DNA of 64,000 bases from Syntrophales bacterium. Lineage in GTDB: Bacteria > Desulfobacterota > Syntrophia > Syntrophales > UBA5619. The position numbers were made by a program, and so were the translations under genes. The notes beneath the pieces were generated by a model that worked only from the letters and a program-made list of their open reading frames with translations, did not search any database and was not told the origin of the DNA. Within the stretch, counting starts at the first letter, position 1; each line of letters starts with the position of its first letter. The stretch lies in NCBI GenBank assembly GCA_023229765.1, contig JALNYO010000010.1, positions 40,003-104,002 on the forward strand, in the 5' to 3' direction. Positions 9,376 to 64,000 of this stretch are shown piece by piece.

Positions 9376-9384
9376 AATCTTCCT

Positions 9385-45960: not shown

Positions 45961-45982
45961 TGTCGTTCCTCCCTTATCAGCC

Positions 45983-46008: not shown

Positions 46009-46024
46009 ATTTTATAATATGTCG

Positions 46025-46624: not shown

Positions 46625-46626
46625 TA

Positions 46627-48477: not shown

Positions 48478-48502
48478 GTTAGCTTTCTCCTTTTTTTATA
48501 TT

Positions 48503-49279
48503 TTAAGCAACGTTCTCTTCGGCTATGATGGCCGCTCCATAAGCCGCCATGATTTGAGGTTCGAGGGGGACGATAAATTCATGCCCCGCTATCTCCTGTA
48601 TGGCCTTGATTAGACCCATATCTTTAGCCCCGCCCCCGATCAATGCGCAATCCTGCTCGATGCCGATCCGTTCCGCAAGGGTATAGAGCTGCGCCGCCAG
48701 GGCCAGATGGATGCCGGCCAGCAGGTCTTCTTTGGCCAGGCCCTCGGCAATTCTCGAGACAGCTTCTGTTTCTGCAAAGACGGCGCACTGCGTATTAAAT
48801 CTGACGGGGTTTTGCGAGGTAAGCGACAAAGGGCCTATTTCCTCAATCTTTACCTGTAAAACCCGCGCAATCACCTGCAGAATTCGGGCGCTTCCCCCCG
48901 CGCATTTGCCGCTCAACAAAAAAGCGACTGTTTTTCCGCTTTGGTCAATCCGGGAGACCTTGCTGGAAAGGTCTCCCACGTCAACAATCGTTCGCACCGA
49001 CGGATGAAAACGGGAAACCGCCCGTCCCTGGCATAAAATATCAGACGAAGTCTTGTCTGCGCAAGCTACATTGACTGCCCCGCCGCCCGTGGCGACTATG
49101 CAGGCGATATCGCCGCGGGAGAGCTCCGCCTTTTTCAGCGCGGCGTCAAGAACAACTTCTGCCGCCATTTTGTAGTTTCCACCCGAGGGGATTATGTGCC
49201 GGGAAAGCAGCTTGCCGTTGGCAACTATAACCGCCTTTGAAGAACCTGCCCCGATATCAATGCCGGCTACGTGCTGCAT
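48503..49279 (-). CDS. BcrA/BcrD/HgdC-family ATPase subunit (BzdQ-like) of an ATP-dependent aryl-CoA reductase
   Basis: 258 aa acetate/sugar-kinase-fold ATPase (GIDIGAGSSKAVIV...GGGAKD). It is the fourth gene in an N-O-P-Q-like order. Confidence 0.75.
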   Translation of the reverse strand: MQHVAGIDIGAGSSKAVIVANGKLLSRHIIPSGGNYKMAAEVVLDAALKKAELSRGDIACIVATGGGAVNVACADKTSSDILCQGRAVSRFHPSVRTIVDVGDLSSKVSRIDQSGKTVAFLLSGKCAGGSARILQVIARVLQVKIEEIGPLSLTSQNPVRFNTQCAVFAETEAVSRIAEGLAKEDLLAGIHLALAAQLYTLAERIGIEQDCALIGGGAKDMGLIKAIQEIAGHEFIVPLEPQIMAAYGAAIIAEENVA

Positions 49280-49303
49280 CCGTCCGGTTTTCCTTCCCCA
49301 ATG

Positions 49304-50164
49304 CTAATTAAAAAACGTTACTTCACCCCAATTGCGGGGTCTTTTCGGCAGTTCCCCGGCAGGCGTCGCCTGGAATTTATCCTTTCCCAGCAGCGCCGCG
49401 CCGATGGCCCCGGTTACCAGCGGCTCCGGGGGAACCAGAACCGCATATCCCAACCTTTCCGCGAGCACCTTCACCAGATGCCCGTTTTTGGCGCCGCCGC
49501 CGGTAACAACAACCTCTTTTTCCACAGCAAGCCGGCTGACTGTACGGAGAATGCGCTCGGCGACCGATTGGTGGATGCCGGCGACCAGATCGCCCAAGAG
49601 CGCTCCTTCGGATAAGCGGGACGCCACCTCCTGGGCGGCAAAAACGGTGCATAAGCTGCTTATCCGTGCCGGGTTTTTGCTTTCCTCGGCAGTTTTGCTC
49701 AGCGCGACCAGCTCTATCCCCAGCGTTCCGGCAATAACCTCCAGAAATCTGCCGGTGCCGGCCGCGCACTTGTCATTCATCACAAAATCGACTGGTTTGC
49801 CCTTGGCGTCTATCTTGATCCCCTTGACATCCTGCCCGCCGATATCGATTATCGTTCTTGCCTGCGGAAAGATACTGTTTACGCCCCGGGCGTGGCAGGA
49901 GATTTCCGTTATCTGCTTGTCCGCGAAAGGCACGTTGATTCTGCCATAGCCGGTAGCGACCAGATAGCTTATTTCCTCAAAGGAAAGGCCGGCCTTCTTC
50001 AAGGCTTCCTGCATTACTTTACCCGCCAGTTTCCTTTGTTCCGGGCCGGTTGGGCCGATCACGGAACATACTATTCCCCCATTAACTATTACTGCCTTGG
50101 TCATGGTAGAGCCGATATCAATGCCGGCGAAATATTTTGAAGATGAAGCCTTGCTTTCTGTCAC
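49304..50164 (-). CDS. Second BcrA/BcrD-family ATPase subunit (BzdP-like)
   Basis: 286 aa paralog of the previous gene (GIDIGSTMTKAVIV...DKCAAGTGRFLE...TGGGAKN). Having two distinct ATPase genes argues for a heterodimeric benzoyl-CoA-reductase-type module rather than a single dehydratase activator. Confidence 0.75.
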   Translation of the reverse strand: MTESKASSSKYFAGIDIGSTMTKAVIVNGGIVCSVIGPTGPEQRKLAGKVMQEALKKAGLSFEEISYLVATGYGRINVPFADKQITEISCHARGVNSIFPQARTIIDIGGQDVKGIKIDAKGKPVDFVMNDKCAAGTGRFLEVIAGTLGIELVALSKTAEESKNPARISSLCTVFAAQEVASRLSEGALLGDLVAGIHQSVAERILRTVSRLAVEKEVVVTGGGAKNGHLVKVLAERLGYAVLVPPEPLVTGAIGAALLGKDKFQATPAGELPKRPRNWGEVTFFN

Positions 50165-51540
50165 GACGCCTCTTTATGGGCCTTCAGCGATTCCAGCGTT
50201 TCGATGAAGGCGTCTATCTTGCTCCTGGTTTCCACCTCGGAGTAGGAGCTCATATCGACGATGTCGCTTTCCAGGATGAGCGAGGGGTTTTCCCTGTTCA
50301 CCGTCTTACCGAGGCTCAAAACCGGGATCGGCCGGTAAATCTTTTTCAATTGGTTCAACTGCCAGATCAGCCCCAGATGCCAGGTTCGGCAGGAAAAAGC
50401 CTCGTGCATGACAATGCCGTCAATCTGATAATCTTCAATATACTGGATTAAACGTTCTACATCCGGCTCCGATCCGGGCCGTTTTTTTGCCTTGTCATAC
50501 CAGTACGTCCAGTAGCGGAGCCATCGCCAGGCGAGTCGCTCAACGGGGTCGCTGGTTCTGGGGATGTTCAGCCGGTCGATGGGCTCAATCATGCGGTATG
50601 TCGTCTCTGCCGGGAAGACCGCCCCTTTGCTGTTGAAATAATTAAAATCGGTAAGCGCAAACCAGGAGGGGAGCCCTCCGCCCCAGAGCAGCCGGTATTT
50701 TTCATCCTCGATGACGCCCTCTTTACGGGCAATTCTTTCCTCCAGCTCCCGGTGCAGATCCAAATAAAAATCATACGCCTCCTGGGTTCCCATCATGAAC
50801 ACCATGGGGACCATCGTGTTCATTGCGTCGCCCGTGTCCATCGGGGTCGGCACAGCCCTTCTTAATTCATAGGTCTCCCAGATCAAATCCCAGGTGCGTT
50901 CGCTCAAGGCAACAATTTCAGCGAGCCGGTCATAGTCCATCTTCCGGCCGGTCTGCTTCTCCAGAAAACTGATCAGTCCGTGCAGTTCCTCCATAATATG
51001 CTTTATATAATAATCGGCGACATCGGCCACTTCGACATTATCCTCGTACAGCGGCCACGGCAGGTCAACATTATAAACGGGGACGTCCGGCATAAACTGC
51101 TGTGCGGCCTGGTACCATTTGTTTCTCGGGTCGCACAGGATCTGGCCGCTCGAAAGCATCATGTCGGGTCTTGTCTGTCCGCCCCAGGGGGCATTGGGAG
51201 GCATGCCGCCGAGCTCTTCGCGCATATGGTCAAAGCCGAGCCCGCACAGCGCATACGTGCATAAAGAGCGGGAAAGTCCCAAAGACTCCGCCCTTTCCAG
51301 GAACCTGTTGACGTCGCGCTTTACGCCGCAGATGCCGGCATAATTCTCCGTCCAGACGGGGACTATGTCCATTGCCCGGATTATCTCATCGTAACTGGAA
51401 CTTATAAAGGTGTAGGCAGACTTTTTTCCTTCCTGCCGGGCCTTCAGGGCGCCGCCGATGGTCGCCTTTACCATGCCGCCGATTCTGCCGGCGGCCGCGG
51501 TTGCTGTCCTTCTTTTCTTTTTCTCCGCTACTTCAGCCAT
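50161..51540 (-). CDS. Benzoyl-CoA reductase/2-hydroxyacyl-CoA dehydratase family large subunit (BzdO/BcrB-like)
   Basis: 459 aa with family-typical segments (DIVPVWTENYAG, SRSLCTYA, ESDIVDMSSYSE...IDAFIETL). Confidence 0.75.
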   Translation of the reverse strand: MAEVAEKKKRRTATAAAGRIGGMVKATIGGALKARQEGKKSAYTFISSSYDEIIRAMDIVPVWTENYAGICGVKRDVNRFLERAESLGLSRSLCTYALCGLGFDHMREELGGMPPNAPWGGQTRPDMMLSSGQILCDPRNKWYQAAQQFMPDVPVYNVDLPWPLYEDNVEVADVADYYIKHIMEELHGLISFLEKQTGRKMDYDRLAEIVALSERTWDLIWETYELRRAVPTPMDTGDAMNTMVPMVFMMGTQEAYDFYLDLHRELEERIARKEGVIEDEKYRLLWGGGLPSWFALTDFNYFNSKGAVFPAETTYRMIEPIDRLNIPRTSDPVERLAWRWLRYWTYWYDKAKKRPGSEPDVERLIQYIEDYQIDGIVMHEAFSCRTWHLGLIWQLNQLKKIYRPIPVLSLGKTVNRENPSLILESDIVDMSSYSEVETRSKIDAFIETLESLKAHKEAS

Positions 51541-51570
51541 TTGTCAGCGCCTCCCCAAAGTGAATCGGCA

Positions 51571-52740
51571 TTACTCAATTACCTCGAGAAACGCCTGAAT
51601 CCTTGTTCTCAGGCTGCCGATGGTACCTGCGGAATACTCATCTTCAATATAGAGAACCGGCACATTCAGCGATTCAAGGTAGGCCTTTCTTGCCGGAATC
51701 TCAAACCCGAAGGGATCGCAGTATTTGTAGATGTAGAGGATTACCCCGTCCACGGCGTAATCCCGGATCAAGGCGCCCATATCGCCGAATCTCGACTCCA
51801 GATCGTCGGCAAAGGTCTCTCCCTCTTTTCGCTCTTTGCAGGTCCGCGGGCAATTTATCCTTTTCAGATAACGATCAGCAATGCCGTCCAGAGGATCAGC
51901 CGTGATCGGCGTTTGCGGCCAGAATTCCCTTGTCCCGATGCAGAGATTGTCCACAACGACATTGGCCCCGCTCTCTTCTATGAGACTCATGAAGGCGGGA
52001 TTGTCTATCGTACTGCCGAAGACCATTATCCGGGGCAGCTTTTTGATGCCGTTTTCCTTTCTCCCGCTGATTTCCTCATGCACTTCAATAAGCAATTGAT
52101 TCGCTTCCTGAACCGGCAAGCTCAAACATGCCAGCAGAATCTTAATCATTTCCGAGCCGGCAAGCAGGGGCGGATCCTGCCTTCTCAACTCGTACAGGGC
52201 CCTTACCTTTCGTCTGTTCTCGTTGTACAGCTCAACATAATGGGCCAGGTCAGAGTCGGATATTTTTTTATTCGCAAATTGTTCCAGGCTTTTGCGGAAA
52301 TTTTCGATATCCGCCCTGAAAAAATCCAGAGAGGAGCCATTGGCGGTATGGGGGACATTAACAAAATGGGAGTAGGGGAAGTCGAGCACATACCGCCAGA
52401 CGCTGTAGGTTCTGGCGATGCTGTCGCAACTGTGGGGGATTGCCAAACCGTCGCAAAAGCTGTACCGGCCCTTCACGGAAACGTCAAAGCAGCTTCTTGC
52501 GTAGGGGCAGGCGATTGTCTCCAGGTTAACGTCGCCTTTGGTAATCGGCTCATTGACGTCGCCCCTTATCCGGAGCGGGATGAAGCCCGCGGCCGCGATG
52601 ATCTCCAAGGGAACGAGGGCGCAGACGTAGGCAATAACCTTTTGCCCCTGCTCCTTCAGCTCTTTTACCCTGACACCATAGTTCCAGTATAATCCCTCCG
52701 CTTTGGATAAGCCATAGCCGGCGATCTTCTCTTCTGACAT
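51571..52740 (-). CDS. Benzoyl-CoA reductase/2-hydroxyacyl-CoA dehydratase family subunit (BzdN/BcrC-like)
   Basis: 389 aa with the sequences VIAYVCALVPLEIIAAAGFIPLRIRG...CPYARSCFD...HSCDSI. It is the first gene of the four-gene operon. Confidence 0.75.
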   Translation of the reverse strand: MSEEKIAGYGLSKAEGLYWNYGVRVKELKEQGQKVIAYVCALVPLEIIAAAGFIPLRIRGDVNEPITKGDVNLETIACPYARSCFDVSVKGRYSFCDGLAIPHSCDSIARTYSVWRYVLDFPYSHFVNVPHTANGSSLDFFRADIENFRKSLEQFANKKISDSDLAHYVELYNENRRKVRALYELRRQDPPLLAGSEMIKILLACLSLPVQEANQLLIEVHEEISGRKENGIKKLPRIMVFGSTIDNPAFMSLIEESGANVVVDNLCIGTREFWPQTPITADPLDGIADRYLKRINCPRTCKERKEGETFADDLESRFGDMGALIRDYAVDGVILYIYKYCDPFGFEIPARKAYLESLNVPVLYIEDEYSAGTIGSLRTRIQAFLEVIE

Positions 52741-53460: not shown

Positions 53461-55305
53461 ATGGCAGAAGAAAAAAAGTTTCCTTATGCAGAAGAAGTAA
53501 AGTTCCCGCCGGCAATGGCAGGCTGGGAGGAGATGTACCCGCCGCATCGTTTATTCAGCAGTGATAGAGATGATTGGGAAAAGAGGCATTTCTGGTATCA
53601 GGATAAGATCCATGATCCGGAAGCGCTGTATCCGCTCGATGATATCTTCAATGAGGCATGGCAGATATCTCTTTCCCAATATACCACGAGGGTTTTCTGT
53701 ATCCCTCCTGCCCAGGGGGTGCAGCAGAGGATGTTAGGCTGCTATATGTATATATCGGCTGTTGAACCGCCGCCGCCAGAGGTTATCGGAGAAAAGGCGG
53801 AAGTTTTTGGGAAAAGGCTGCCCTACATCCTGCAGAATTACGATATGCTATGGGAGAAATGGCTTGAGAAGTTCAAGGCTCTCGGAAGGGATATGCAAAA
53901 TGTAAAGGTGCCGGAAGAACTTCCAAAGTATGTGCCGGATGAGGATATTTTCCCTGTGACAAAAGGCTATACCCCGGCGTATGAAGTGATAGCGGCGTTC
54001 AATACATTAGTAAACCAGATATTTTTAGGATGGCAGTACCACTTTGAGTATCTGAACCTCGCTTACCTTGCCTATCTGATGTTTGTGGATACAGCCAAAA
54101 AATTATTCCCGGGTATAAAAGAGGGCGCGGTTATGAAAATGGTTGCTGGCATTGATGCAGCCATGTTCCGCCCTGATGAAGAGTTGTGCAGATTAAGCAG
54201 ATTGGCTGTGGCGCAGCGGCCTGTTGGCGACATTCTTAAAAAGAATATATCGGCTGACGAGAAGATGAAAGAATTGCAGAGCACACACGAGGGCCGGGCA
54301 TGGCTGGAGGAGCTTGAGAAGATAAAGGATCCATGGTTCTTTGTATCCTGTGCAAGCGGCTGGTTTCACTATGAAGGTAGTTGGATAACCAAACTGGACG
54401 TGCCTTTCAGCTATATGCAGAGCTACGTGGAAAGGCTTGAGAAAGGGGAAAAGATCGAGCGGTCGTTCGCGGCCATCGAAAAAGAGAGGGAAGGCATTGT
54501 TGAAGAGTACAAAAAGCTCATAATGGCTGAGGATGATAGAAAGTCTTTTGAAGATGCCTATAATGCGGTCAGAACAATATATCAGTTCACCGAAAACCAC
54601 ATCTTCTGGGTAGAGAACTGGTTCCATACGATATGGTTCGATAAGGTAAGGAAGTTTGGAAATCTGCTGGTAAAGTATAATGTATTGAAGAAGACGGACG
54701 ATATCTTTCTCTTCAATAGATTTGAAGTGCCAATGCTGCTGGAGGATATGGTGACCGCCTGGGCATTGGGCGTGGGCGCCCCTACGAGAAGTAAATACTG
54801 GATGGAGAAGGTAGAGAAGAGAGAAAAGATACTTGCGGCTGCAAGAGAATGGGAGCCTGTCCCCGGACTGGGAATGCCGCCTGAAGAGGTGTCAGAGCCA
54901 TTTACCGTGATGCTTTGGGGTATAACCAGCGACAAGGTTGAAGAGTGGCTGAAGGGCGCCGATTTATCTGCAAACGAAATAAAAGGATTTGCATCATCGT
55001 CAGGGGTTGTTGAAGGACCGGCAAGGGTAATCAAACTTGCCCAAAATATTGTTGAACTCAAAGCCGGCGAGATTCTGGTTTGTCCATCCACCAACCCATC
55101 ATGGGCGCCGGTCTTTACAAAGATAAAGGCTGCCGTGACCGACATTGGCGGACTTACATGTCACGCTTCCATAGTCGCGCGCGAGTATGGCTTGCCCTCT
55201 GTAACGGGCACTGGAGTTGCAACCTCAATCATTAAGACAGGCGACATATTAAGGGTTGATGGCGGTAATGGGATTGTCACAATAGTGAAAAGGGCAGGAG
55301 CTTAA
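53461..55305 (+). CDS. Phenylphosphate-synthase alpha-subunit-like protein (PEP-utilizing phosphohistidine swivel domain at C-terminus)
   Basis: 614 aa. The segments GWEEMYPPHRLF...FWYQDKIHDPEALYPLDDIFNEAWQISLSQYTTRVFCIPPAQG...CWQYHFEYLNL are colinear with my recollection of Thauera aromatica PpsA. The C-terminal GGLTCHASIVAREYGLPSVTG carries the phospho-His. Confidence 0.8.
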   Translation: MAEEKKFPYAEEVKFPPAMAGWEEMYPPHRLFSSDRDDWEKRHFWYQDKIHDPEALYPLDDIFNEAWQISLSQYTTRVFCIPPAQGVQQRMLGCYMYISAVEPPPPEVIGEKAEVFGKRLPYILQNYDMLWEKWLEKFKALGRDMQNVKVPEELPKYVPDEDIFPVTKGYTPAYEVIAAFNTLVNQIFLGWQYHFEYLNLAYLAYLMFVDTAKKLFPGIKEGAVMKMVAGIDAAMFRPDEELCRLSRLAVAQRPVGDILKKNISADEKMKELQSTHEGRAWLEELEKIKDPWFFVSCASGWFHYEGSWITKLDVPFSYMQSYVERLEKGEKIERSFAAIEKEREGIVEEYKKLIMAEDDRKSFEDAYNAVRTIYQFTENHIFWVENWFHTIWFDKVRKFGNLLVKYNVLKKTDDIFLFNRFEVPMLLEDMVTAWALGVGAPTRSKYWMEKVEKREKILAAAREWEPVPGLGMPPEEVSEPFTVMLWGITSDKVEEWLKGADLSANEIKGFASSSGVVEGPARVIKLAQNIVELKAGEILVCPSTNPSWAPVFTKIKAAVTDIGGLTCHASIVAREYGLPSVTGTGVATSIIKTGDILRVDGGNGIVTIVKRAGA

Positions 55306-55478: not shown

Positions 55479-56582
55479 ATGAATCAAAAAGGAGAAATTA
55501 CGCAGCCTTTATTGGGTATTTTGGGAACAGCGGTTGTATTTTTCATCGCCTTTGGCATTATCACCTGGTTTAAGCCAGAGACATTTATCCCCTGGGCAGG
55601 GGAGCTGGCCATGTGCCTCATCCCATTTTCCATCATCATAGGAATGGTCTGGAAAGCCGACTACCCGGCGCCCGCGGCAAAATTAGAGCAACCCTTGAAA
55701 GGGCTGTATCTTTTATTGTTAAACATGATCGTCGGGTCTGTTGTCGCTGCATGGTCGATCAAGACCGTGGGAGGCTTCGTGACGCCACCCACGCCGCCTC
55801 TTATATTCTTCACGATTATGACAGTTATTATGACATTTTGGTGCGTCGTTGTATGGGGCTGCTGGCCGGCATCCGGCATCAAGGGCGACCACCCCGCCTT
55901 CGTGGGTTTTGGCACGCTTATAGTTGCTTACGCATTATCCTGGATACTCTTCAAGACATTATTCAATTTTGATTTCATGAATGGCGCCCCTTTCTACGCA
56001 GCGGTTATGCCCCCAAGCGGAGCGTTTAATGCCTTTTCGAGCTTAGCCTTCTTTCTTACGGCCCTGGCCGTCATTCTGGCCTGGGTGGAACTCGACTTCT
56101 GGCCATTAAGCCTTATTCCGCCGAAGGCCCCTGCCTTTGGCAAACAACCCATCTGGGGAATTGTGGTCAGTATCGTGGCAATCATCAGCGCGTATATAAT
56201 CAAGGTGATTTTTGTAGATAACATGGGAATGGACGTGTTTGCATTCACTGTGAGAGTTCCGATCAGCATAATCTTTGGAGAGTTCATTATGCTTCTTTTG
56301 CTGCAGACTTCTCCGGTGCAGACTATGAAACAACCAGGAAAAGGGATAATCCTGATCATCCTCAATATCATTCTCGCAGTCGTCATGTACTATCTCTATC
56401 GCTGGTTCAGCTTGCTCATCGCCGGTCCTCTGCCAAGTGGAAGCGCCGCTGGTTATGTGCAGGAACTCTGGATCGCCACCGCACTTTTGGGCTTTACCTT
56501 TCCTGTTATTGCCGCTTACACGGGGTTTTTCAATTTCTGGCCGCTGACTGAGCCAAAACCGCCAGCGCCGCCAAAGGCGTAA
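55479..56582 (+). CDS. Polytopic membrane protein of unknown family (about 9-10 TM helices), Pro-rich C-terminal tail
   Basis: 367 aa, strongly hydrophobic throughout, ending in EPKPPAPPKA. RBS GGGGGG lies before the ATG. I recognise no family motif. Confidence 0.7.
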   Translation: MNQKGEITQPLLGILGTAVVFFIAFGIITWFKPETFIPWAGELAMCLIPFSIIIGMVWKADYPAPAAKLEQPLKGLYLLLLNMIVGSVVAAWSIKTVGGFVTPPTPPLIFFTIMTVIMTFWCVVVWGCWPASGIKGDHPAFVGFGTLIVAYALSWILFKTLFNFDFMNGAPFYAAVMPPSGAFNAFSSLAFFLTALAVILAWVELDFWPLSLIPPKAPAFGKQPIWGIVVSIVAIISAYIIKVIFVDNMGMDVFAFTVRVPISIIFGEFIMLLLLQTSPVQTMKQPGKGIILIILNIILAVVMYYLYRWFSLLIAGPLPSGSAAGYVQELWIATALLGFTFPVIAAYTGFFNFWPLTEPKPPAPPKA

Positions 56583-56698: not shown

Positions 56699-57778
56699 AT
56701 GAAGATGGCGGAAAAATGGATATACTGGCTAAAAGATGTTTGTCAGGAACACAACAATATTATTGGTAAAAAATGCGCCAACCTTGGAGAGTTGACGAAG
56801 GCGGGGTTTAACGTCCCCCCTGGTTATGCCCTTGGCGTGGACGCCTACAGCAGATTTATGAACGAGACAGAAGCCACAAAACTTATATTGAAGTATTTAG
56901 AGGACTTTAAGGCTGATCCCAACGATTTGGCGGAGACCCTGAAATACGAAAAGGCGGCCCAGGATATAAGGGAAATTGTGGAAAGGATAAAAATGCCTCC
57001 TGATATGGAGGAGACCGTAAAAAGCCACTACGGGGAATTGTGCAAAATTGCGGGATGTGAAAATATATATGTAGCTACCCGTTCCGCAGGGCCTGCAAGC
57101 CATCCCGGGCAGTATGAGACATATTTGAATGTAAGCGGGGCAGATGATGTTGTTGCCAATGTGGTGCGCGTCTGGGGGAGCACGTTCAATGCCCGCTCTA
57201 TAATAGCAAGGGCAAGGCTCAATTTGCCGCTGCATTATGACCCGATAGGAGTGGCTGTATTGACAATGGTTGATGCAAAGGCGGCCGGGGTTATGTTTAC
57301 CATAAACCCTGTTAATGGCGATGTATTAAAGGTAGCGATAGAAGGGAGCTTCGGTTTTGGTGAAGCTGTGGTTTCCGGGAATGTAACGCCTGACAGGTAT
57401 CTGGTTGATAAAGTTAGTTTGACGATTGAAGAAAAGATAATTTCCGATAAGGGAAGTGAATTTGTCTATAACCCGGAGACCAAAGAGATGGAATATACAG
57501 AGCTGCCTCCGGAGCAAAGGAAGGCTCAGTGTCTGGAAGATAGAGAAGTTATCGAGCTTACGAGGATTGCGAAAAGGGTTGAAGCGCATTTCGGCTGCCC
57601 CCAGGATACAGAGTGGTCTATCTCGAGAAGCCTTCCCTTTCCGGATAATATCTTTCTGGTGCAGGCTCGTCCGGAGAGCGTGTGGGGCAAGAAAAAGAGG
57701 GGTTCTGTGCTTGGTAAAAAGACTGGGTTGGAGTTGCTGCTTGAAAAGGCTGTCACCCCAACTAAAGTTAGAATTTAG
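56699..57778 (+). CDS. Phenylphosphate-synthase beta-subunit-like protein (PEP synthase/PPDK N-terminal ATP-grasp domain)
   Basis: 359 aa. The sequence IGKKCANLGELTKAGFNVPPGYALGVDAY...DTEWSI is the PPDK_N nucleotide-binding domain. Its size matches the roughly 40-kDa PpsB type. Confidence 0.8.
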   Translation: MKMAEKWIYWLKDVCQEHNNIIGKKCANLGELTKAGFNVPPGYALGVDAYSRFMNETEATKLILKYLEDFKADPNDLAETLKYEKAAQDIREIVERIKMPPDMEETVKSHYGELCKIAGCENIYVATRSAGPASHPGQYETYLNVSGADDVVANVVRVWGSTFNARSIIARARLNLPLHYDPIGVAVLTMVDAKAAGVMFTINPVNGDVLKVAIEGSFGFGEAVVSGNVTPDRYLVDKVSLTIEEKIISDKGSEFVYNPETKEMEYTELPPEQRKAQCLEDREVIELTRIAKRVEAHFGCPQDTEWSISRSLPFPDNIFLVQARPESVWGKKKRGSVLGKKTGLELLLEKAVTPTKVRI

Positions 57779-57813: not shown

Positions 57814-59034
57814 ATGGAAGAGGATAGGGCAATTGCAGTAATAGGAACATTTGATTCGAAGGCGGAAGAACATCTGTTTCTGAGGGACGTCATTCAAGAG
57901 CGGGGTTTTAAAACAGCAATGGTTCACCTGGGGACAAAGGGGCCGTCCCCCTTTAAGGCCGACTATGACCTGTATGCGGACGTTATCGCCCCGAATCCGC
58001 GAAAAAATCTCAGCAGGGATGAGGCAATTGAACTGGTCATTGACCATGCCGGGCCATTAATCAGAAAACTGCACTCGCAGGGGCGCATTTGCGGCCTGAT
58101 ATCGGCCGGCGGAGGAACCGGAACGTATATCAGCACTGCCCTGATGCGTCAGCTCCCCATAGGAGTCCCCAAGGTGATGGTTTCTACCGTGGCGTCTCGC
58201 GATATGGCGAAAACTGTCGGCACCAAGGACATCACGATGATTCATAGCGTGGTGGATATTTTGGGCGTCAACAGCATTTCGGGCAGGATTCTGGATATGG
58301 CTGCCGGCGCCGTCTGCGGCATGGCCGCAAGGAAGTGGAGCCCCGCTTGCGAAAAGCCTCGAATTGCCATGTCTTTTTTTGGATTTGTCACACGTGCCGC
58401 AGAGAATATCAGGGGTCATCTGGAGTCGCAGGGATATGAGGTTATTCCGTTTCATGCCAATGGCACAGGTGGAACGGCAATGGAAGAGCTGGCCGCCGAG
58501 GGTTACTTTGCGGGTATCCTGGATCTCGCCACGCACGAGCTGGCCGATGAGCTGATGGGCGGATACTGCAAAGGGATCAAACCGAACAGACTGATGTCAA
58601 ACAATGGGAAGAGCATCCCGCGCCTGGTGATTCCCGGGGGGTTGGATTGCGCGGTCTTCGAGTTTACCCGCGAGACGATCCCCGCTGAATTTGCCGAGCG
58701 GAAGCTGTTTTTTTACGATTTTCGTTCCGCAATTCGCTTGGACTATCAGGAGACCGGGCAGATAGCTGCCCAACTGATCGAAAAACTGAATGCCGGCACG
58801 GCTTTGGTCAAGGTGCTTATTCCCAGTCGGGGCTGGTCCGAAGCTGATGGGGAAGCCTGCCCCTTATGGGATCCCGAGGTCAGTCAATCCTTTGTGGGCG
58901 CAATCAGGCAGGGGCTGCGTTCCGATATCAGCGTGATTGAGTCTGACAGCCATATTAACGATCCCTCCTTTGGCAGGCAGGCGGCGGAAGTAATGCACGG
59001 CATGGTTCAGCAGTCCGCATCTGAGCTTCTGTGA
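57814..59034 (+). CDS. UPF0261 (Tm-1-like N-terminal ATP-binding domain) family protein, copy 1
   Basis: The sequence reads MEEDRAIAVIGTFDSKAEEHLFLRDVIQERG...GGGTGTYI...VPKVMVSTVAS...HANGTGG. I prefer ATG 57814 (AGGAG 5 nt upstream) over the track TTG at 57781. Confidence 0.7.
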   Translation: MEEDRAIAVIGTFDSKAEEHLFLRDVIQERGFKTAMVHLGTKGPSPFKADYDLYADVIAPNPRKNLSRDEAIELVIDHAGPLIRKLHSQGRICGLISAGGGTGTYISTALMRQLPIGVPKVMVSTVASRDMAKTVGTKDITMIHSVVDILGVNSISGRILDMAAGAVCGMAARKWSPACEKPRIAMSFFGFVTRAAENIRGHLESQGYEVIPFHANGTGGTAMEELAAEGYFAGILDLATHELADELMGGYCKGIKPNRLMSNNGKSIPRLVIPGGLDCAVFEFTRETIPAEFAERKLFFYDFRSAIRLDYQETGQIAAQLIEKLNAGTALVKVLIPSRGWSEADGEACPLWDPEVSQSFVGAIRQGLRSDISVIESDSHINDPSFGRQAAEVMHGMVQQSASELL

Positions 59035-59035
59035 T

Positions 59036-60004
59036 TTAATCCCTGGTTGTTGGATAATATCCTGGCTGCACGCGTAGTCTGCTTATAATATCGGTGATAT
59101 CAGCGGATGCCATGTTCGCGGGGGTCATGTCAACCAGCATGTCTATGAACGCCTGAGCCGCCTTGGAAAGGGATTGGCCTCGGAGATAGGCAATGCTGAT
59201 ATTCATCCAAAGTTTGATATCGCCTATCGGGGCTGTAAGAATTTGGCCATTCTCAAGTTCCGCGGTCAACAGCGGTTTTACCAAAAAAGAAATCCCTTCG
59301 CCCCTTTTCACCATCTCGATTATTAGCCCATCATTGCTTGTCTCCATAAGAATATTGGGACTGAATTGATATTCAGCAAAAAACCTGTCGAGCACGCGGC
59401 GCGTGCCGGAACCGCCATGCTTCATGATTATTGGTTCCTGGCTGATGTCGTTCAGGGTTATGGATTCCTTTCCCGCCAGACGGTGGTCGGGGGCCATGAT
59501 GAGCATTATTTCTTCACGGGCAAAGGGGATAAATGTCAGATCAGTTCTGTTTTCAGGCGTGGCAATGAAGCCCACTTCGATCTGCAGGTCGTGCAGGCTC
59601 TGGGTAAGATCGGTTGAATTCCCTTCGTTTACATTTATCTTGACCAGGGGGTGCAGCAGATGAAAGGCATGGATAAGAAAGGGCATGATATATAGAGTGT
59701 ATGCCTTTGACGCCCCCACCCTCAGAACGCCTCTCTTTAATTGTCGCATGTCCTGGATGACATTTTCAATCTCCTTTTCATACTCAAACACCCGGAGGGC
59801 ATAAGCATAAAGGGTTTTTCCTTCATCGGTCAGGCACAGCCCCCGGCCTTTTCTCTTGAATAATTTTATATCGCAGCAGTCTTCAAGGGATTTTACCTGG
59901 GCAGTCACGGCCGGCTGAGTAATAAAAAGTTCTTTGGCCGCGAGGGTAAAACTCAAAGTTCTGGCAGCGTGATAGAATACCCGGAGCTGATTAAAATTAA
60001 GCAT
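59036..60004 (-). CDS. LysR-type transcriptional regulator
   Basis: 322 aa. The N-terminal HTH reads MLNFNQLRVFYHAARTLSFTLAAKELFITQPAVTAQVKSLE, followed by a C-terminal substrate-binding domain. It is transcribed divergently from the UbiD-like gene. Confidence 0.9.
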   Translation of the reverse strand: MLNFNQLRVFYHAARTLSFTLAAKELFITQPAVTAQVKSLEDCCDIKLFKRKGRGLCLTDEGKTLYAYALRVFEYEKEIENVIQDMRQLKRGVLRVGASKAYTLYIMPFLIHAFHLLHPLVKINVNEGNSTDLTQSLHDLQIEVGFIATPENRTDLTFIPFAREEIMLIMAPDHRLAGKESITLNDISQEPIIMKHGGSGTRRVLDRFFAEYQFSPNILMETSNDGLIIEMVKRGEGISFLVKPLLTAELENGQILTAPIGDIKLWMNISIAYLRGQSLSKAAQAFIDMLVDMTPANMASADITDIISRLRVQPGYYPTTRD

Positions 60005-60040
60005 AACCGATCAGTCCTCTTTAATATAACAATCAACCGG

Positions 60041-60062
60041 CTGATAATACTCTGATTATCAG
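60041..60062. promoter_or_regulatory. Perfect inverted repeat CTGATAAT-N6-ATTATCAG upstream of the LysR gene
   Basis: It lies 37-58 nt upstream of the LysR start codon (60004, minus strand). It is a candidate autoregulatory operator. Confidence 0.35.
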
Positions 60063-60124
60063 AGCGCTCAGCAAAACGGCAGAGTGCCTGTATTGATAAC
60101 TATGGAGATTTTCTATCGCTATTT

Positions 60125-60144
60125 ATAATTTATACTTATGGATA
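60125..60144 (+). promoter_or_regulatory. ATAA-N7-TTATGGATA (LysR T-N11-A type box), motif site 4 in the LysR/UbiD divergent region
   Basis: ATAATTTATACTTATGGATA has the same spacing as site 3. It is embedded in GCTAT-N19-ATAGC dyad symmetry. Confidence 0.45.
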
Positions 60145-60353
60145 GCATAAAAAAATTGAAATTGACAATTTTTTTTAAATCGGTAATCTAACAGTCACAT
60201 GGAAAAAACTGAATAAGCGGCAAACGTCAGCACCAATGTATGCTTCCCTGTAACGATTATTTGCAGCCCAAATTAATGATGTCGGTCCCGGCGACAAAAG
60301 GTTTTGTTCGCATATTGGCAGATTGAACCCATTTAAAGGAGGTATTGATTGCG

Positions 60354-61757
60354 ATGAAAGACATGAGAGATTTTATAGCGTTATGCGAAAAAGAAGGAAT
60401 TTTGAAGCGGATTACAGCCGAGGTTGATTGGAATCTGGAGCTTTCGACCATCGCGAAGGTCAACGAAGAGAAGGGTGGCCCGGCGCTCCTTTTTGAAAAT
60501 GTTAAAGGTTACAATACCCCGGTTCTGATGAGCGCCTTTGGCACGACCGAACGTTTGTCCCTGGTCATGGGCATGCCTATCGGCTCGACTCTGGTCGATC
60601 TGATGCGGAAATGGGTGGAAAAAGGGGGAATTAAGATTCCCCCCAAGTGGGTGGATAAGGCGCCCTGTAAAGAGAATATCCTCAAGGGCGATGATATTGA
60701 TCTGTTCAAGTTCCCGGTTCCCAAGTTTTATCCGCTGGATGGCGGTCGCTATTTCGGCACAGCCCACTATATTGTTTCGAAAGACCCGGATACGGGGTGG
60801 GTCAACCTCGGGACATACAGGGCGCAGCTTCTCAACAAGAATCACCTGGGCGTCCAGTTTATCAAAGGCAAGCATGCGGACATTATGCTGAAAAAGTATG
60901 CGGCGAGAAAACAATCCATGCCGGTTGCCTCGATCGTGGGGAGCGATCCGCTGCTCTTTCTGATGGGTGGGGCCCGTTTGTCGGCATTTGATTCCGAATA
61001 TGATTTTGCCGGCGCCTTGCGAGAGGAGCCGGTGGAGGTCATCAAGGGAGAAACGGTTGATTTGCCTATCCCTGCGCATGCGGAAATCGTTGTCGAGGGC
61101 GAGGTGGATCCCGAGGCCTTTATGGACGAAGGGCCTTTCGGCGAATATACCGGCTATTACTCCGGGGTGGGAACAGACCCACGTAATTTTATCAAGGTCA
61201 ACTGCATTACCCACCGGAACAATCCCATTTTCTGGGGAACTACCGTCGGCAAGGCTGTAACCGATACCCATATGACCCTGGCCTTGACATACGGGGCCAC
61301 TCTGTGGCAGCAGCTCGTTGCCATGAGGATTCCCGGCCTCAAGGCCGTTTACTGCCCTCCTGAAGCCGCGGGGAGATTCATAGCTATAATCTCCGTCAAA
61401 CAGATGTACCCCGGACATGCCGATCAGGTTGCCACGGCGGCCATCTCTACGGAAATGGGCGCCTATGGTCTCAAGACCGTCATTGTTGTCGATGACGATA
61501 TTGATCCTTGGGACATCCCCAGGGTCCTTTATGCGTTAGCTTTCCGCTTCCAGCCCAACCGATCGCAGGTCATCAAGCGTGGCCGCTCGACGCCGCTTGA
61601 CCCCTCGCTGCCGATTGACGCCCGGTGGATCACGGGGCGCTTGCTCATTGACGCGACTATCCCGTATGAATGGAAGGAGAAGCCGATCCCGGTCGAGCTT
61701 GATCCCGACGTCCTAAAAAGGGTAAAGGAGAGATGGTCGGAGTTGGGTTTGGCGTAG
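60354..61757 (+). CDS. UbiD-family prenylated-FMN-dependent (de)carboxylase
   Basis: The sequence reads MKDMRDFIALCEKEGILKRITAEVDWNLELSTIAKV...GGPALLFENVKGY...GPFGEYTGYY. I prefer ATG 60354 (AGGAGG 11 nt upstream) over TTG 60345. Confidence 0.85.
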   Translation: MKDMRDFIALCEKEGILKRITAEVDWNLELSTIAKVNEEKGGPALLFENVKGYNTPVLMSAFGTTERLSLVMGMPIGSTLVDLMRKWVEKGGIKIPPKWVDKAPCKENILKGDDIDLFKFPVPKFYPLDGGRYFGTAHYIVSKDPDTGWVNLGTYRAQLLNKNHLGVQFIKGKHADIMLKKYAARKQSMPVASIVGSDPLLFLMGGARLSAFDSEYDFAGALREEPVEVIKGETVDLPIPAHAEIVVEGEVDPEAFMDEGPFGEYTGYYSGVGTDPRNFIKVNCITHRNNPIFWGTTVGKAVTDTHMTLALTYGATLWQQLVAMRIPGLKAVYCPPEAAGRFIAIISVKQMYPGHADQVATAAISTEMGAYGLKTVIVVDDDIDPWDIPRVLYALAFRFQPNRSQVIKRGRSTPLDPSLPIDARWITGRLLIDATIPYEWKEKPIPVELDPDVLKRVKERWSELGLA

Positions 61758-61830
61758 TTCATGGCGTTAAGTTAAACGCATGCCCCCTCCCGTGGGAAGA
61801 AGTAATATCCCCCGGCGAGGGGCCTGATTT

Positions 61831-61962
61831 GTAACTATTCAGCACTTAAAAAAGATTGTCATCCCCGAGTGTCTCTATCGGGGATACGGGTTTAAAACCG
61901 GTACCATATTCCCGATTACACCCTCGGGAATGACAGATTTTATTATCATGCTGAATAGTTAC
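61831..61962. repeat. 14-nt perfect inverted repeat flanking MITE-like copy A
   Basis: GTAACTATTCAGCA (61831-61844) and TGCTGAATAGTTAC (61949-61962) bracket the element. Copy B is bracketed by a different 11-nt inverted repeat, AATTGCAAAAC (4284-4294) / GTTTTGCAATT (4416-4426). Confidence 0.5.
61856..61936. mobile_element. MITE-like element copy A (81 bp)
   Basis: The left end is TTGTCATCCCCGAGTGTCTCTATCGGGGATAC. The reverse complement of the right end is CTGTCATTCCCGAGGGTGTAATCGGGAATATGG. Each end contains a CCCGA...TCGGG hairpin. The left 30 nt are near-identical to the copy at 4298. Confidence 0.5.
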
Positions 61963-62027
61963 CATGATTTTTGATATCCGGCCTCCATTTCCTATCACGG
62001 CCGGACGACTTGGAGCGGAGGCAGAAG

Positions 62028-63299
62028 ATGACCATTGCAGTAATCGGCATGCTGGATGAAAGAGAAGCGGGCCTGGCCCTGATCAAGAAAACCATTGAAA
62101 AAAGAGGCCACAAAATTGCGCTGATTGATATCAGCATCGGCACCGGGGCCATTAAATCCGCCCTGAAAGCCGACATCACCAATGAAGAGCTGGCCCGAAG
62201 CGGTGGGACAACGGTTGGGGCAATCGCCGGCATGCTGGCTAAGGAGCGGGATAAAGCCACTTCCACGGTTGCGGCGGCGCTGGGGGAAAAACTCACAGAG
62301 ATGCTGGCGTCGGGAAATCTCCAGGGCGTTATTGCCGTGGGCGGCATGACGGGTACATTTATTAGTCTTTCGGCGATGAAAATGCTGCCGTTTGGCCTCC
62401 CTAAACTGCTCATTTCGAGTGTGGCGGCCATGCCTGCTTACGCCAAAAAACTTGCCGAGTTTTTCGGCGTTCGCGACATTACTGTCATGCACAGCGTGGT
62501 TGATACGGTCGGCCTCAACCCGCTGGTGCGAAACCTGATGATCAACGGCGCCGGCGCGATCTGCGGCATGGTGGAATCCTATGAACCTCGCCTGAAGGAA
62601 GGAAGGCCGGCGATTGCCATCACCGAATTTGGCTTTGCCGATAAGGGCGCCCACTATGTACGTGAATTACTTGAGGATCGTTTCGATATAATCTCCTTCC
62701 ACGCAACCGGGATGGGAGAAAAGGCGGCAGGCGACCTTGTCGGCCAGGGGCTTTTCGAGGCCTTTATCGATATAGTGCCGGGCGGGTTCAGCGAATATCT
62801 GCTGGGCGGAAACAGGGCGGCGGGGCCGGATCGCTTAGATGCGGGCTGCCGTCAGGGGAAGCCCTACATCCTCTCTCCGTGCGGTTTTGACATGATCAGT
62901 TGCGGCCCCCTTCAAAGAAGGGATGAAAAAGATCAGCTCTGGGTCTCCAGGAAGTTGGCGGAAAGAAAGCTGCTGCTTCAGGATTCCATCCGGGTGCAAG
63001 CCCGAACAAACCCGGAAGAAATGAAGATGATTGCCGAAGCTGTTGCCGAAAAGCTCAACCGGTGCCCCAACCCGAAACTCGTAAAATTTGTGATTCCGAA
63101 GAGGGGATTTTCATCCCTGAGCGTCGAAGGAGGCGCGTTATTCGACCCCGCATCCGACCAGACATTCATTGACGAGCTGAAAAAGAATCTCTCTTCCCAG
63201 ATAGAGGTGATTGAGGTAGATACCCATCTCAATACGCCTGAGTTTGCCCGGGCAGTTGTTGCCGCCCTGGATCAGGCCATCCGGGATATGCAGGCATAA
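62028..63299 (+). CDS. UPF0261 (Tm-1-like ATP-binding domain) family protein, copy 2
   Basis: The sequence reads MTIAVIGMLDEREAGLALIKKTIEKRG...GGMTGTFI...LPKLLISSVAA...HATGMGE, a paralog of 57814-59034. I prefer ATG 62028 (GGAGG upstream) over the track start at 61971. Confidence 0.7.
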   Translation: MTIAVIGMLDEREAGLALIKKTIEKRGHKIALIDISIGTGAIKSALKADITNEELARSGGTTVGAIAGMLAKERDKATSTVAAALGEKLTEMLASGNLQGVIAVGGMTGTFISLSAMKMLPFGLPKLLISSVAAMPAYAKKLAEFFGVRDITVMHSVVDTVGLNPLVRNLMINGAGAICGMVESYEPRLKEGRPAIAITEFGFADKGAHYVRELLEDRFDIISFHATGMGEKAAGDLVGQGLFEAFIDIVPGGFSEYLLGGNRAAGPDRLDAGCRQGKPYILSPCGFDMISCGPLQRRDEKDQLWVSRKLAERKLLLQDSIRVQARTNPEEMKMIAEAVAEKLNRCPNPKLVKFVIPKRGFSSLSVEGGALFDPASDQTFIDELKKNLSSQIEVIEVDTHLNTPEFARAVVAALDQAIRDMQA

Positions 63300-63310
63300 T
63301 AGGCAGTAAT

Positions 63311-63688
63311 ATGGATAGTTTTGATATTTCAGAAAAACATGGCGCCCTTGAGGTTTCTGCACGCACGATGTTTGTGGGTGCGGACGTGCTGGTTGTCCTC
63401 ACGGGCGGCCGCGCCCATATCGGCGCCGTGGCGATTGCCCAGCCGCGGCCGGGCATCAGCGACCCCAACAGGATAGGCTCAACCAGTTCGGTTTTTACCC
63501 TTGTGGGCCATAAGGAAGATGTGATTGCCAAGTCCATGTCGGAAGAGCTTTCCCGAAAGCTCAACCGGGTGGTGTCGGTTGTCGCAGGGATTCACTGGGA
63601 CAGCTTGACGCAAGCAGACATTGTCGTTGTGGTTGAGATGTGCGCGGCGATTGGGAAAAGGATTATTGGGGAGGCGGCCAAACGGTGA
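63311..63688 (+). CDS. LpdD-like small subunit / prenylated-flavin chaperone of UbiD-type decarboxylases
   Basis: 125 aa. The segments VLVVLTGGRAHIGAVAIA and VVAGIHWDSLTQADI resemble my recollection of Lactobacillus plantarum LpdD (VVTGGTNPHIGDV, AGIHVNQIT). It overlaps the ubiX start (GTGA). Confidence 0.6.
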   Translation: MDSFDISEKHGALEVSARTMFVGADVLVVLTGGRAHIGAVAIAQPRPGISDPNRIGSTSSVFTLVGHKEDVIAKSMSEELSRKLNRVVSVVAGIHWDSLTQADIVVVVEMCAAIGKRIIGEAAKR

Positions 63689-64000
63689 AACGGATTATAG
63701 TAGGAATTACCGGCGCGTCCGGGGTGATTTACGGGATACGGCTCCTGCAGGTTCTCAAGGATGCGCAGGTTGAAACGCATGCGGTTATTTCCGAGGCGGC
63801 GAAAAAGAATATCCTGATCGAAACGGATTTTTCCGTCGAGGATGTGGAGAAGCTGGCTTATAAGGTTCATGATGAAAAAAACATGGCCGCCTCGATCTCC
63901 AGCGGCTCTTTCAAGACAGACGGGATGGTCGTCGTTCCCTGCACCATCAAGACGCTGTCCGGCATCGCCAATTCCTTTAACGACAATTTGGTGATCCGCG
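63685..64000 (+). CDS. ubiX: Flavin prenyltransferase UbiX (N-terminal 105 aa; truncated by window edge)
   Basis: Own translation from GTG 63685 reads VKRIIVGITGASGVIYGIRLLQVLKD...ISSGSFKTDGMVVVPCTIKTLSGIANSFNDNLVIR, canonical UbiX/Pad1. It is absent from the ORF track because no stop lies in the window. Confidence 0.9.
   Translation, partial: MKRIIVGITGASGVIYGIRLLQVLKDAQVETHAVISEAAKKNILIETDFSVEDVEKLAYKVHDEKNMAASISSGSFKTDGMVVVPCTIKTLSGIANSFNDNLVIR

Follow-up and report, generated by a model that had tools for sequence, protein, structure and literature searches.

A UPF0261 protein family as a conserved companion of PpcB-type UbiD in reduced phenylphosphate-carboxylase gene clusters

The known route of anaerobic phenol activation consumes approximately two ATP equivalents, which is seemingly too costly for sulfate reducers, iron reducers and syntrophs (PMC6114531), and phenylphosphate carboxylase (Ppc) clusters of a reduced, beta-only kind are already known from these three groups of organisms (PMC6114531, PMC5946492). 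In Desulfatiglans anilini, in particular, no homolog of the gamma subunit is found, the best match to the delta subunit lies outside the cluster and was not detected in the proteome, and phenylphosphate carboxylase activity could not be demonstrated in extracts (PMC6114531). Earlier comparisons put the shared core of such clusters at PpsAB, PpcB and a UbiX-like gene, and a UPF0261 gene is not mentioned among them (PMC5946492). Here we analyze a stretch of 64,000 nt from a Syntrophales bacterium (GCA_023229765.1, contig JALNYO010000010.1, positions 40,003-104,002; the whole of this stretch is called the window below), in which a PpcB-type member of the UbiD family is accompanied by two genes of the UPF0261 family, denoted U1 and U2. 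Our principal finding is that the linkage of UPF0261 genes to PpcB-type UbiD is conserved and specific. In other words, what is new here is that a phenylphosphate-carboxylase system is accompanied by a conserved family of accessory proteins which had not been recognised before.

The other described system of relevance is MarK (Saro_1862) of Novosphingobium aromaticivorans, a UPF0261 protein with a crystal structure (9MPY), which phosphorylates the phenolic hydroxyl of acetovanillone and related compounds, converting ATP to ADP (PMC12624787). A preliminary description of our locus, made from the sequence alone, had taken UPF0261 proteins to be without an established function in bacteria; with MarK known since 2025 as an ATP-dependent aryl kinase of solved structure (PMC12624787), this statement is outdated. 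In the 9MPY structure, the contacts to the phenolic oxygen come from the backbone of G195 and from H219, the contact to the ring from H304 by stacking and that to the keto group from H348, and D14-T15-K16 is the proposed ATP site (PMC12624787).

Combining the listing of open reading frames (ORFs) with Pfam and NCBIfam profile searches, we obtained the following gene calls for the region of interest:

57814..59034, + strand: UPF0261-1 (U1), 406 aa (PF06792 6e-52, PF23189 6.5e-60)
59036..60004, - strand: LysR-family regulator (PF00126 and PF03466)
60005..60353: putative AT-rich divergent control region between lysR and ubiD (promoter-like matches only)
60354..61757, + strand: PpcB-type UbiD, 467 aa (TIGR02724, 512.6 bits)
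62028..63299, + strand: UPF0261-2 (U2), 423 aa (PF06792 4e-39, PF23189 1.4e-57)
63311..63688, + strand: LpdD-type protein, 125 aa (PF21758 6.5e-33)
63685..64000 (window end), + strand: UbiX, first 105 of 188 aa (TIGR00421, 134.7 bits)

The content, order and strands of the six genes all agree with the preliminary description, as do the missing TIM-barrel partner gene of UPF0261, of which we likewise see none in the window, and the length of 467 aa given for UbiD. Namely, the UbiD ORF spans 60345..61757, and its probable start is ATG 60354, located 3' of an AAGGAGG site. The lysR gene, which is present in most related loci, ends 1 bp from the stop of U1, being convergent with U1 and divergent from UbiD, and its product probably regulates the operon. 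The start of UbiX overlaps the gene of the 125-aa protein by GTGA. Directly upstream of the U1-UbiD region lie genes for PpsA- and PpsB-like subunits.

What kind of carboxylase is encoded here? The UbiD protein passes the equivalog model of the phenylphosphate carboxylase beta subunit (TIGR02724; 512.6 bits against a cut-off of 468.95), while it fails both the VdcC model (NF041204; 331.6 bits against 650) and the PpcA model (TIGR02723; 223 bits against 564.6), and it misses the cut-off for UbiD proper, too; its closest solved structure is 7PDA (8e-84). To see how widely UPF0261 genes accompany such proteins, we surveyed loci from both sides, covering flanks of approximately 10 kb. On the U2 side, an alignment of U2 orthologs was used as query against one genome per GTDB species, giving 80 loci, and those with a U2 homolog of at least 61% identity and at least 1.5 kb upstream were counted. 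A PpcB-like UbiD is present in 40 of these 43 U2 loci, either directly upstream or with a single gene for a receiver-domain protein of about 175 aa in between, as compared with 1 of 19 loci with weaker U2 homologs. On the UbiD side, the window UbiD was used as query against metagenomes, giving 80 loci with 76-91% identity, and those with at least 4.6 kb downstream of UbiD were counted. Here, a UPF0261 gene follows UbiD on the same strand in 43 of 44 loci (~98%). Two gene orders are seen among the 43: type A, with UbiD, (receiver), U2, (LpdD), UbiX, in 7 of them, and type B, with UbiD, (receiver), a 552-aa AMP-forming ligase, a third paralog denoted U3, (LpdD), UbiX, in the remaining 36. The adjacency, first noted in this single genome, is thus found in independent loci from both directions. 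What is more, all partnered UbiDs tested pass the PpcB cut-off, with scores of 501-643 bits, and U2 stands directly 3' of UbiD with a gap of 0-25 bp in about ten loci. U2 loci with enough flank contain PpsA in 28 of 30 cases and PpsB in 29 of 30; UbiX is found in 35 of 44 U2 loci and LpdD in 14 of 44, and an ortholog of U1 in 13 of 22 wide type-A loci. One locus (L055) has U2 adjoining UbiX and no UbiD. The carriers, with metagenome-assembled genomes labelled as deposited, belong to Syntrophales, Desulfatiglandales, Desulfobacterales, Desulfarculaceae, Anaerolineales, Dehalococcoidia and others. The partnership had been presented initially as undescribed, and we likewise found no description of one between UPF0261 or Tm-1-like proteins and UbiD or phenylphosphate carboxylase in the searchable full-text literature, a coverage from which most subscription journals fall out; the recent literature on Ppc and on prenylated flavin mononucleotide (prFMN), the UbiD cofactor, does not mention UPF0261 either.

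The four-subunit PpcABCD set is missing from the window, as had been proposed before: no match to PpcA, gamma or delta was obtained among the window ORFs scanned, there is no second UbiD in the window, with related loci nearly always having one UbiD, and the operon leaves no unassigned coding space for gamma or delta. Clustering of ORFs of 45-130 aa from 127 loci gave no recurrent small conserved ORF; the clusters look like off-frame artefacts, save for a 57-aa ORF in 8 loci. This predicted helical ORF lies directly 5' of UbiX (L095, positions 12293-12466, and seven other loci), and the loci concerned are of type A and encode a PaaK-like aryl-CoA ligase in the U2-UbiX interval. Among 48 type-A loci, only about 5 have a HAD_2 hydrolase. 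Namely, a 244-aa, phosphoglycolate-phosphatase-like HAD_2 protein is encoded several kb from the operon in L040 (2042-2776) and about four other type-A loci, and also in L106 and L117.

The remaining two genes concern the cofactor. UbiX exceeds its model cut-off already with the 105 aa inside the window (TIGR00421, 134.7 bits against 108.9), and its full length of 188 aa is seen in the Logan contig L001. The proposed homology of the 125-aa protein to LpdD was confirmed, both by PF21758 (6.5e-33) and by a match to the solved LpdD chain 8P4W (1.4e-6); over residues 12-120, the chains 8P4W, 8PZH and 8PO5 all match with E of approximately 1.5e-6. To our knowledge, LpdD is unrelated to the short subunit of the BsdD/VdcD type, and no short ORF of this type was found in the operon, nor does one recur in the 127 loci. 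The role of a D subunit, which the preliminary description had given to the 125-aa protein, does not fit, since the LpdD family (PF21758) is that of a prFMNH2-binding chaperone assisting in UbiD activation (PMC10865409). By its sequence, the 125-aa protein is an LpdD-type prFMNH2 chaperone and not a catalytic D subunit. Nor does the assignment of the module as a whole to LpdBCD/ShdBCD/BsdBCD-type decarboxylases hold, since UbiD passes the PpcB cut-off and fails that of VdcC, and since PpsA and PpsB are linked to it in approximately 95% of related loci. Judging from these profile matches and gene neighbors, the locus is a phenol-activation cluster of the Pps-Ppc type, of the reduced beta-only kind, rather than an LpdBCD/BsdBCD decarboxylase.

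U1 and U2 are each 100% identical to NCBI entries from metagenome-assembled genomes. They are 33% identical to each other, and both contain the two Pfam domains of UPF0261 (PF06792, N-terminal, and PF23189, C-terminal). U1 aligns with MarK 9MPY over approximately 320 residues (E=1.3e-41) and U2 over nearly its full length (1.9e-42), and phmmer searches against solved members (MarK 9MPY and Tm-1 3WRW/3WRY) gave E-values between 1e-39 and 2e-47. The sole strong fold matches of the AlphaFold2 model of U2 (pLDDT 82) are Tm-1 and MarK, with E of about 1e-31 and a TM-score of about 0.5, the angle between the domains being different. In an alignment of 121 sequences, 43 positions are conserved family-wide, and the core of the nucleotide domain is conserved in both paralogs. 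In particular, U1 has D-S-K as its ATP motif and retains the residues equivalent to G195, H219 and D349 of MarK, with pocket changes H302F, H304Y and H348A. U2 keeps G195, H219 and the 43 core positions; it has D-E-R for D-T-K within an invariant GMLDERE motif (T15E, K16R), by which the positive charge is retained, and it carries D250E and Ser at D349. We refer to proteins with this motif as the DERE type, and their only clean switches are K16R, D250E and D349S, plus T15E. The motifs FGF and FHA[NT]G, which hold the G195 and H219 ligands, are conserved in U1 and U2, and neither protein has any of the MarK pocket residues H302, H304 and H348, the last of which is Ala or Leu here. H304, which is more than 90% conserved among MarK homologs, is in U2 either Gln (MAFFT) or Arg (pairwise HMMER), and never His. 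The replacement of H304 and H348 indicates a different substrate, without excluding membership in the family. U3 keeps the LDTK motif, G195 and D349, and its H219 is mostly Ser. In a neighbor-joining tree, two superclades are seen, one of U3 with the DERE-type proteins and one of MarK, Tm-1 and U1. From its residues, U1 is most likely an aryl kinase that forms ADP and has a pocket unlike that of MarK.

In D. anilini, the proteome supplement lists two entries named 'Uncharacterized protein, UPF0261 family' (PMC7500099), whose values are given here as replicate 1 areas. H567DRAFT_02057 (403 aa) of the phe cluster, encoded between ubiX (02056) and the ligase (02058) and ppcB (02059) genes, reaches 2.5e9 (91 peptide-spectrum matches) on phenol, with 5.0e7 on aniline, 5.3e7 on benzoate and 0 on 4-aminobenzoate (PMC7500099). 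H567DRAFT_03869 (411 aa) of the ani cluster reaches 5.4e9 on 4-aminobenzoate and 6.5e8 on aniline, with 0 on both benzoate and phenol (PMC7500099). Neither paper on this organism discusses these genes (PMC6114531, PMC7500099), and uncharacterised genes appear as white arrows in the cluster figures of the aniline study (PMC7500099). The gene order and protein lengths of D. anilini match those of the type-B locus L085, and, given this synteny and the identical lengths, its partner protein is probably U3 and not a DERE-type U2.

The closest relatives of U2 are found beside carboxylases of an entirely different kind. Homologs of the DERE type, with 54-60% identity to U2 and the same GMLDERE motif, occur in Acidobacteriota, Actinomycetota and Desulfosarcina; 18 of their 19 loci with adequate upstream flank have no UbiD nearby, and one cluster only (L076) has UbiX. 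Instead, these clusters (L062-L083, e.g. L074 10001-17644 and L065 6880-19099) are arranged in the order DERE-type UPF0261, carboxyltransferase/biotin carboxyl carrier protein, biotin carboxylase, second UPF0261, and CoA ligase or transferase. The second UPF0261 protein is a MarK ortholog, with LDTK, L[GS]TT, FH[ST]QG, RYH[IV]HN and SxHD motifs. In the described hydroxyphenylethanone pathway, a kinase acts first, its phosphorylated product is then carboxylated by a biotin carboxylase, and a phosphatase (HpeD/AcvF) is required as well, being essential in N. aromaticivorans (PMC9618137). From their gene content, the clusters with DERE-type proteins look like an undescribed variant of this acetovanillone/4-hydroxyacetophenone pathway, and among 99 neighboring ORFs from 17 of these loci no HAD family was found in two or more members. 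With the MarK ortholog as the kinase and no phosphatase, the DERE-type protein is, therefore, the unassigned gene that matches the missing function. By the same token, in Ppc clusters PpsAB is the kinase, the Thauera-type delta subunit is absent, and U2 is the unassigned and near-universal gene. In other words, the unassigned gene coincides with the missing function in two mechanistically unrelated carboxylase systems. In the tree, UbiD-linked U2 is nested within the biotin-linked DERE proteins, which suggests that U2 was recruited from one carboxylase system to the other.

What might U2 then do? Starting from five observations, i.e. the homology, the residue pattern, the linkage to PpcB-type UbiD, the sister linkage to a second class of aryl-phosphate carboxylases and the substrate-specific expression in D. 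anilini, we propose, with a probability of about 45%, that U2 is an aryl-phosphate-handling partner of the carboxylase, which takes the place of the phosphatase subunit, and that U1 is a conventional, ADP-forming aryl kinase. The region would represent a strict-anaerobe version of an operon for activation and carboxylation of phenol or a phenolic compound. Namely, the PpsA/PpsB-like dikinase subunits would make the aryl phosphate and a single, prFMN-dependent UbiD of the PpcB type would carboxylate it, with UbiX making the prFMN cofactor and LpdD chaperoning it into UbiD. U2 would bind phenylphosphate, remove or accept its phosphoryl group and hand the phenolate over to UbiD for carboxylation in the para position; this cleavage of the P-O bond would be the job which in Thauera aromatica falls to the HAD-type delta subunit, missing from the present loci. 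We infer a physical partnership of U2 and UbiD, as well as the direction of the phosphoryl transfer and its acceptor, be it water or ADP. Because they belong to a family of phenolic-hydroxyl kinases and are present almost universally beside the carboxylase, the UPF0261 genes are probably its overlooked missing component. As for the ATP-dependent accessory function that the preliminary description had suggested for them, its candidate of substrate activation agrees with the direction of the evidence, and its candidate of prFMN maturation is disfavored by the relatives of U2 beside biotin carboxylases.

That said, several points speak against this proposal. Type-B clusters (36 of the 43) use U3, in which the ATP motif is kept and H219 is mostly Ser, and since its residues differ from those of U2, one mechanism common to U2 and U3 is not obvious. 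Their linkage to UbiX and LpdD is as tight as that to UbiD, so that gene order cannot separate a role with the substrate from one with the cofactor. A phosphatase could be encoded elsewhere in the genomes, beyond the flanks of about 10 kb that were covered. The receiver-domain protein, found in about one third of the loci and not in the window, is an alternative delta-like candidate by virtue of Asp-phosphate chemistry. What is more, recombinant PpcB and PpcB2 of D. anilini converted phenylphosphoamidate without a UPF0261 protein (PMC7500099). Finally, a third homolog search and a look-up of cluster members yielded no named D. anilini entry with which the type of its proteins could be read from sequence.

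The receiver-domain protein deserves a separate remark. This stand-alone protein of about 175 aa is encoded either 3' of PpsB or in the interval that separates UbiD from U2 or the ligase (L013 9316-9852; L005, L006, L012, L028, L029, L038, L002, L003 and many of L086-L165), and its 175-aa counterpart in D. anilini, 02050, is abundant and phenol-induced (PMC7500099). Since receiver domains work by Asp-phosphate chemistry, it could serve the pathway by accepting phosphoryl groups and not by regulating it.

How do other explanations fare against the same evidence? One could argue that U1 and U2 are stand-alone kinases of the MarK type (ATP to ADP), working in parallel with PpsAB on phenol, cresols, hydroquinone, catechol or aniline, uncoupled from the carboxylase, and offering a cheaper route or a wider range. 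Indeed, kinase activity is the sole activity demonstrated for the family (PMC12624787), none of the canonical residues is lost in U1, the phenol and aniline clusters of D. anilini each have a UPF0261 protein induced by their own substrate, and many genomes combine MarK homologs with dikinase-type aryl kinases. However, PpsA and PpsB are kept in approximately 95% of loci, such that the second kinase would be redundant and yet near-universal, and both U2 (K16, D349) and U3 (H219) are changed at residues which are invariant or near-invariant among canonical members. In addition, the DERE-type protein of the biotin clusters coexists with a true MarK ortholog, and therefore is not the kinase there, and the position of U2 directly after UbiD, with the short gaps given above, does not suggest an uncoupled enzyme. 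We consider this explanation somewhat unlikely. The narrower idea that U2 replaces PpsAB as the kinase was rejected, as PpsAB is retained almost everywhere. A product-side role, in which the UPF0261 proteins would phosphorylate 4-hydroxybenzoate and so pull the carboxylation, or a regulatory one, in which they would sense ATP or aryl phosphate by analogy with Tm-1, draws on the adventitious phosphorylation of vanillic acid and other para-substituted phenolics by MarK, on the aryl-CoA ligase genes interleaved with U2 or U3 in many loci, and on plant Tm-1, which works by (ATP-bridged) protein binding and not by catalysis. We find such a role very unlikely: none of the phenol degraders studied has given evidence of an intermediate in which 4-hydroxybenzoate is phosphorylated, and the strongly conserved positions of the catalytic core argue for an enzyme over a binding protein.

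Two further explanations place the UPF0261 proteins nearer to UbiD itself. They may be ATP-dependent helpers, loading prFMN onto UbiD or maturing it there anaerobically. The place of U2 or U3 is invariably after UbiD and before LpdD/UbiX, U2 stands beside UbiX without UbiD in L055, and what is known of the oxidative maturation of prFMNH2 comes from work with oxygen or dedicated maturases (PMC10865409, PMC13040415). This is distinctly unlikely, however, in view of the closest relatives of U2 (54-60%, GMLDERE) in biotin clusters, with no UbiD within about 10 kb and with UbiX in L076 only. The partnered UbiDs, all of the PpcB type, point to substrate specificity and not to a general cofactor role, the ligands of the phenolic oxygen in MarK are conserved in U1 and U2, and the chaperone role is already filled by LpdD. 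The other explanation, a three-part decarboxylase/carboxylase of the LpdBCD/BsdBCD type, acting on free phenol or hydroxybenzoate and energised by the UPF0261 proteins, would account for the adjoining UbiD, LpdD-family and UbiX genes and for the 332 bits of UbiD on the VdcC model. Yet it is barely credible, considering that the latter score (331.6) falls far below 650 and the PpcB cut-off is passed, that the PpsA/PpsB linkage is near-universal, that no short ORF of the BsdD/VdcD type was found, and that LpdD, a chaperone and not a catalytic subunit (PMC10865409), is present in only 14 of 44 type-A loci and hence accessory.

A more specific version of our proposal, in which U2 is an aryl-phosphate-handling partner of UbiD, concerns the acceptor. 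Namely, U2 may be a reverse aryl kinase, which would transfer the phosphoryl group of phenylphosphate to ADP, release the bound phenolate into the prFMN carboxylase and so recover one ATP per phenol. In the sister clusters, the same transfer would follow biotin-dependent carboxylation, instead of a wasteful phosphatase. This version is unlikely as it stands, and its consequences would be considerable. With ADP as the acceptor, the net cost of phenol activation would be halved, which would explain how sulfate reducers and syntrophs afford it, and it would also explain why phenylphosphate carboxylase has not been reconstituted from these organisms, as the assays were run without the partner protein and ADP. 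More generally, the overlooked conserved gene between UbiD and UbiX is a specific candidate for the missing component. What is more, the occurrence of one paralog type with both prFMN- and biotin-dependent carboxylases suggests a general module for aryl-phosphate hand-off, which could serve in engineering CO2 fixation onto phenolics and in lignin-monomer pathways.

The other features of the window mentioned in what follows are:

44362..52740, - strand: divergent downstream-pathway block (Pfam and NCBIfam matches), with the four entries given next
44362-45960, - strand: AMP-forming aryl-CoA ligase
46025-48477, - strand: 2-oxoacid:ferredoxin oxidoreductase pair
48503-50164, - strand: two BcrAD/BadFG ATPases
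50161-52740, - strand: two HGD-D/BcrBC-like subunits
53461..55305, + strand: PpsA-like subunit, 614 aa, with mobile His domain (PF00391 3e-23; NF006153, 824.6 bits against a cut-off of 578)
55479..56582, + strand: 367-aa hydrophobic protein, apparently membrane-bound, between ppsA and ppsB
56699..57778, + strand: PpsB-like ATP-binding subunit, 359 aa (PF01326 3e-83)
61831..61963: miniature inverted-repeat insertion, 133 bp, in the ubiD-U2 spacer

The 367-aa protein between ppsA and ppsB has no Pfam or NCBIfam match and has homologs in few related loci (72% identity in L014 and about 29% in L002, L013 and L058); its role may be to transport the phenolic substrate. On the opposite strand, the BcrAD/BadFG and HGD-D/BcrBC-like genes resemble those of a class I benzoyl-CoA-reductase-type enzyme. 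A gene set for a Bam-type class II (tungsten, AFOR-like) benzoyl-CoA reductase is located at 7046-17575 (- strand), with an AFOR-like BamB, an HdrA-like protein of 1033 aa and Nuo51-, NuoE- and HoxU-like subunits, so that the class II set and the class-I-like BcrABCD set (48.5-52.7 kb) share one window. Between approximately 26300 and 36400 there are ExtP-, ExtQ- and ExtS-like genes of a cytochrome operon of the selenite/tellurite-reduction type, ExtQ and ExtS scoring above their NCBIfam cut-offs, with a rhodanese-domain protein, a porin and multihaem cytochromes as neighbors. Outside the window, L084 (10001-21127) contains, in this order, a U1-like UPF0261 gene, a short-chain dehydrogenase/reductase, a molybdopterin oxidoreductase, an amine-oxidase-like flavoprotein, a PpsB/PpsA-like pair, a 411-aa UPF0261 protein, a receiver and LysR, and UbiD is absent from the surrounding 10 kb; this cluster may encode a pathway that relies on kinases and is directed at a different phenolic or anilinic compound.

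An exact-sequence look-up of the window UbiD gave no record, and in order to read past position 64000 we used the Logan contig L001, whose proteins are 99-100% identical, and the relatives L004 and L086. There, the sequence 3' of the window end supplies only the rest of UbiX (188 aa), followed by a MazF-like toxin gene and a convergent gene for an ADP-forming, acyl-CoA-synthetase-like protein. The expectation that the cluster continues beyond the window edge is thus not borne out, and UbiX is the last gene of the operon, because unrelated or convergent genes come next. Co-transcription of the operon would follow from the gene spacing in relatives. Promoter and terminator scans gave consensus-level matches and nothing stronger, and no Rfam match was obtained in the 52-64 kb region. 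The 133-bp insertion, of which there is one copy in the window, has terminal inverted repeats of 14 bp that match perfectly (GTAACTATTCAGCA), with TGATTT apparently duplicated as the target, and folds with -59.5 kcal/mol (z=-6.05). It is present in L001, the orthologous spacers in L004 and L086, the closest relatives, are without it, and it looks like a strain-specific insertion of the miniature inverted-repeat transposable element type, outside the conserved system. We considered the spacer hairpin as a conserved regulatory RNA and rejected this for the same reason.

It is instructive to compare the locus with the known systems. As in T. aromatica (PpsABC/PpcABCD), the gene of a UbiD fitting the PpcB model comes after PpsA- and PpsB-like genes and is linked to a UbiX-like one, and the presumed chemistry leads from phenol over phenylphosphate to 4-hydroxybenzoate. 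In contrast to T. aromatica, the window, like most related loci, has one UbiD-type subunit and no PpcA, gamma or HAD-type delta; it also has no PpsC, and possesses UPF0261 paralogs and LpdD. The phe and ani clusters of D. anilini share with it PpsAB or PasAB, the PpcB-type UbiD, UbiX, a UPF0261 gene and the absence of gamma and delta from the cluster, and differ in their order, which by synteny with L085 would be that of type B, with UbiD, 552-aa AMP ligase, 403-aa UPF0261 and UbiX. With the LpdBCD system of Lactiplantibacillus plantarum and with VdcBCD/BsdBCD, the likeness lies in the adjoining UbiX, UbiD and LpdD-family genes; however, the UbiD of the window belongs to another subfamily, there is no BsdD/VdcD-type subunit, those systems are without kinase genes, and LpdD is present in only about one third of the loci related to the window.

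The MarK system resembles ours in the two-domain family and fold, and in an operon with a carboxylase acting on an aryl phosphate, with U1 keeping D-[ST]-K, G195, H219 and D349. It differs in that the identity is only about 30%, that other residues stand in the places of H302, H304 and H348 in U1 and U2 alike, and that U2 has D-E-R for D-T-K and Ser for D349. What is more, the carboxylase partner in the window is of the prFMN/UbiD type and not biotin-dependent, a separate dikinase, PpsAB, is present, and the host is a strict anaerobe. Finally, the Hpe/Acv/Xcc pathway (PMC9618137) follows the same general scheme, i.e. the phenolic hydroxyl is phosphorylated, the substrate is carboxylated and the phosphate is removed, and it is clusters of this type that harbor the closest relatives of U2 along with a MarK ortholog. 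There, however, the carboxylase depends on biotin and not on prFMN and a different carbon is carboxylated, and no HAD phosphatase recurs in those clusters that bear a U2-like protein.

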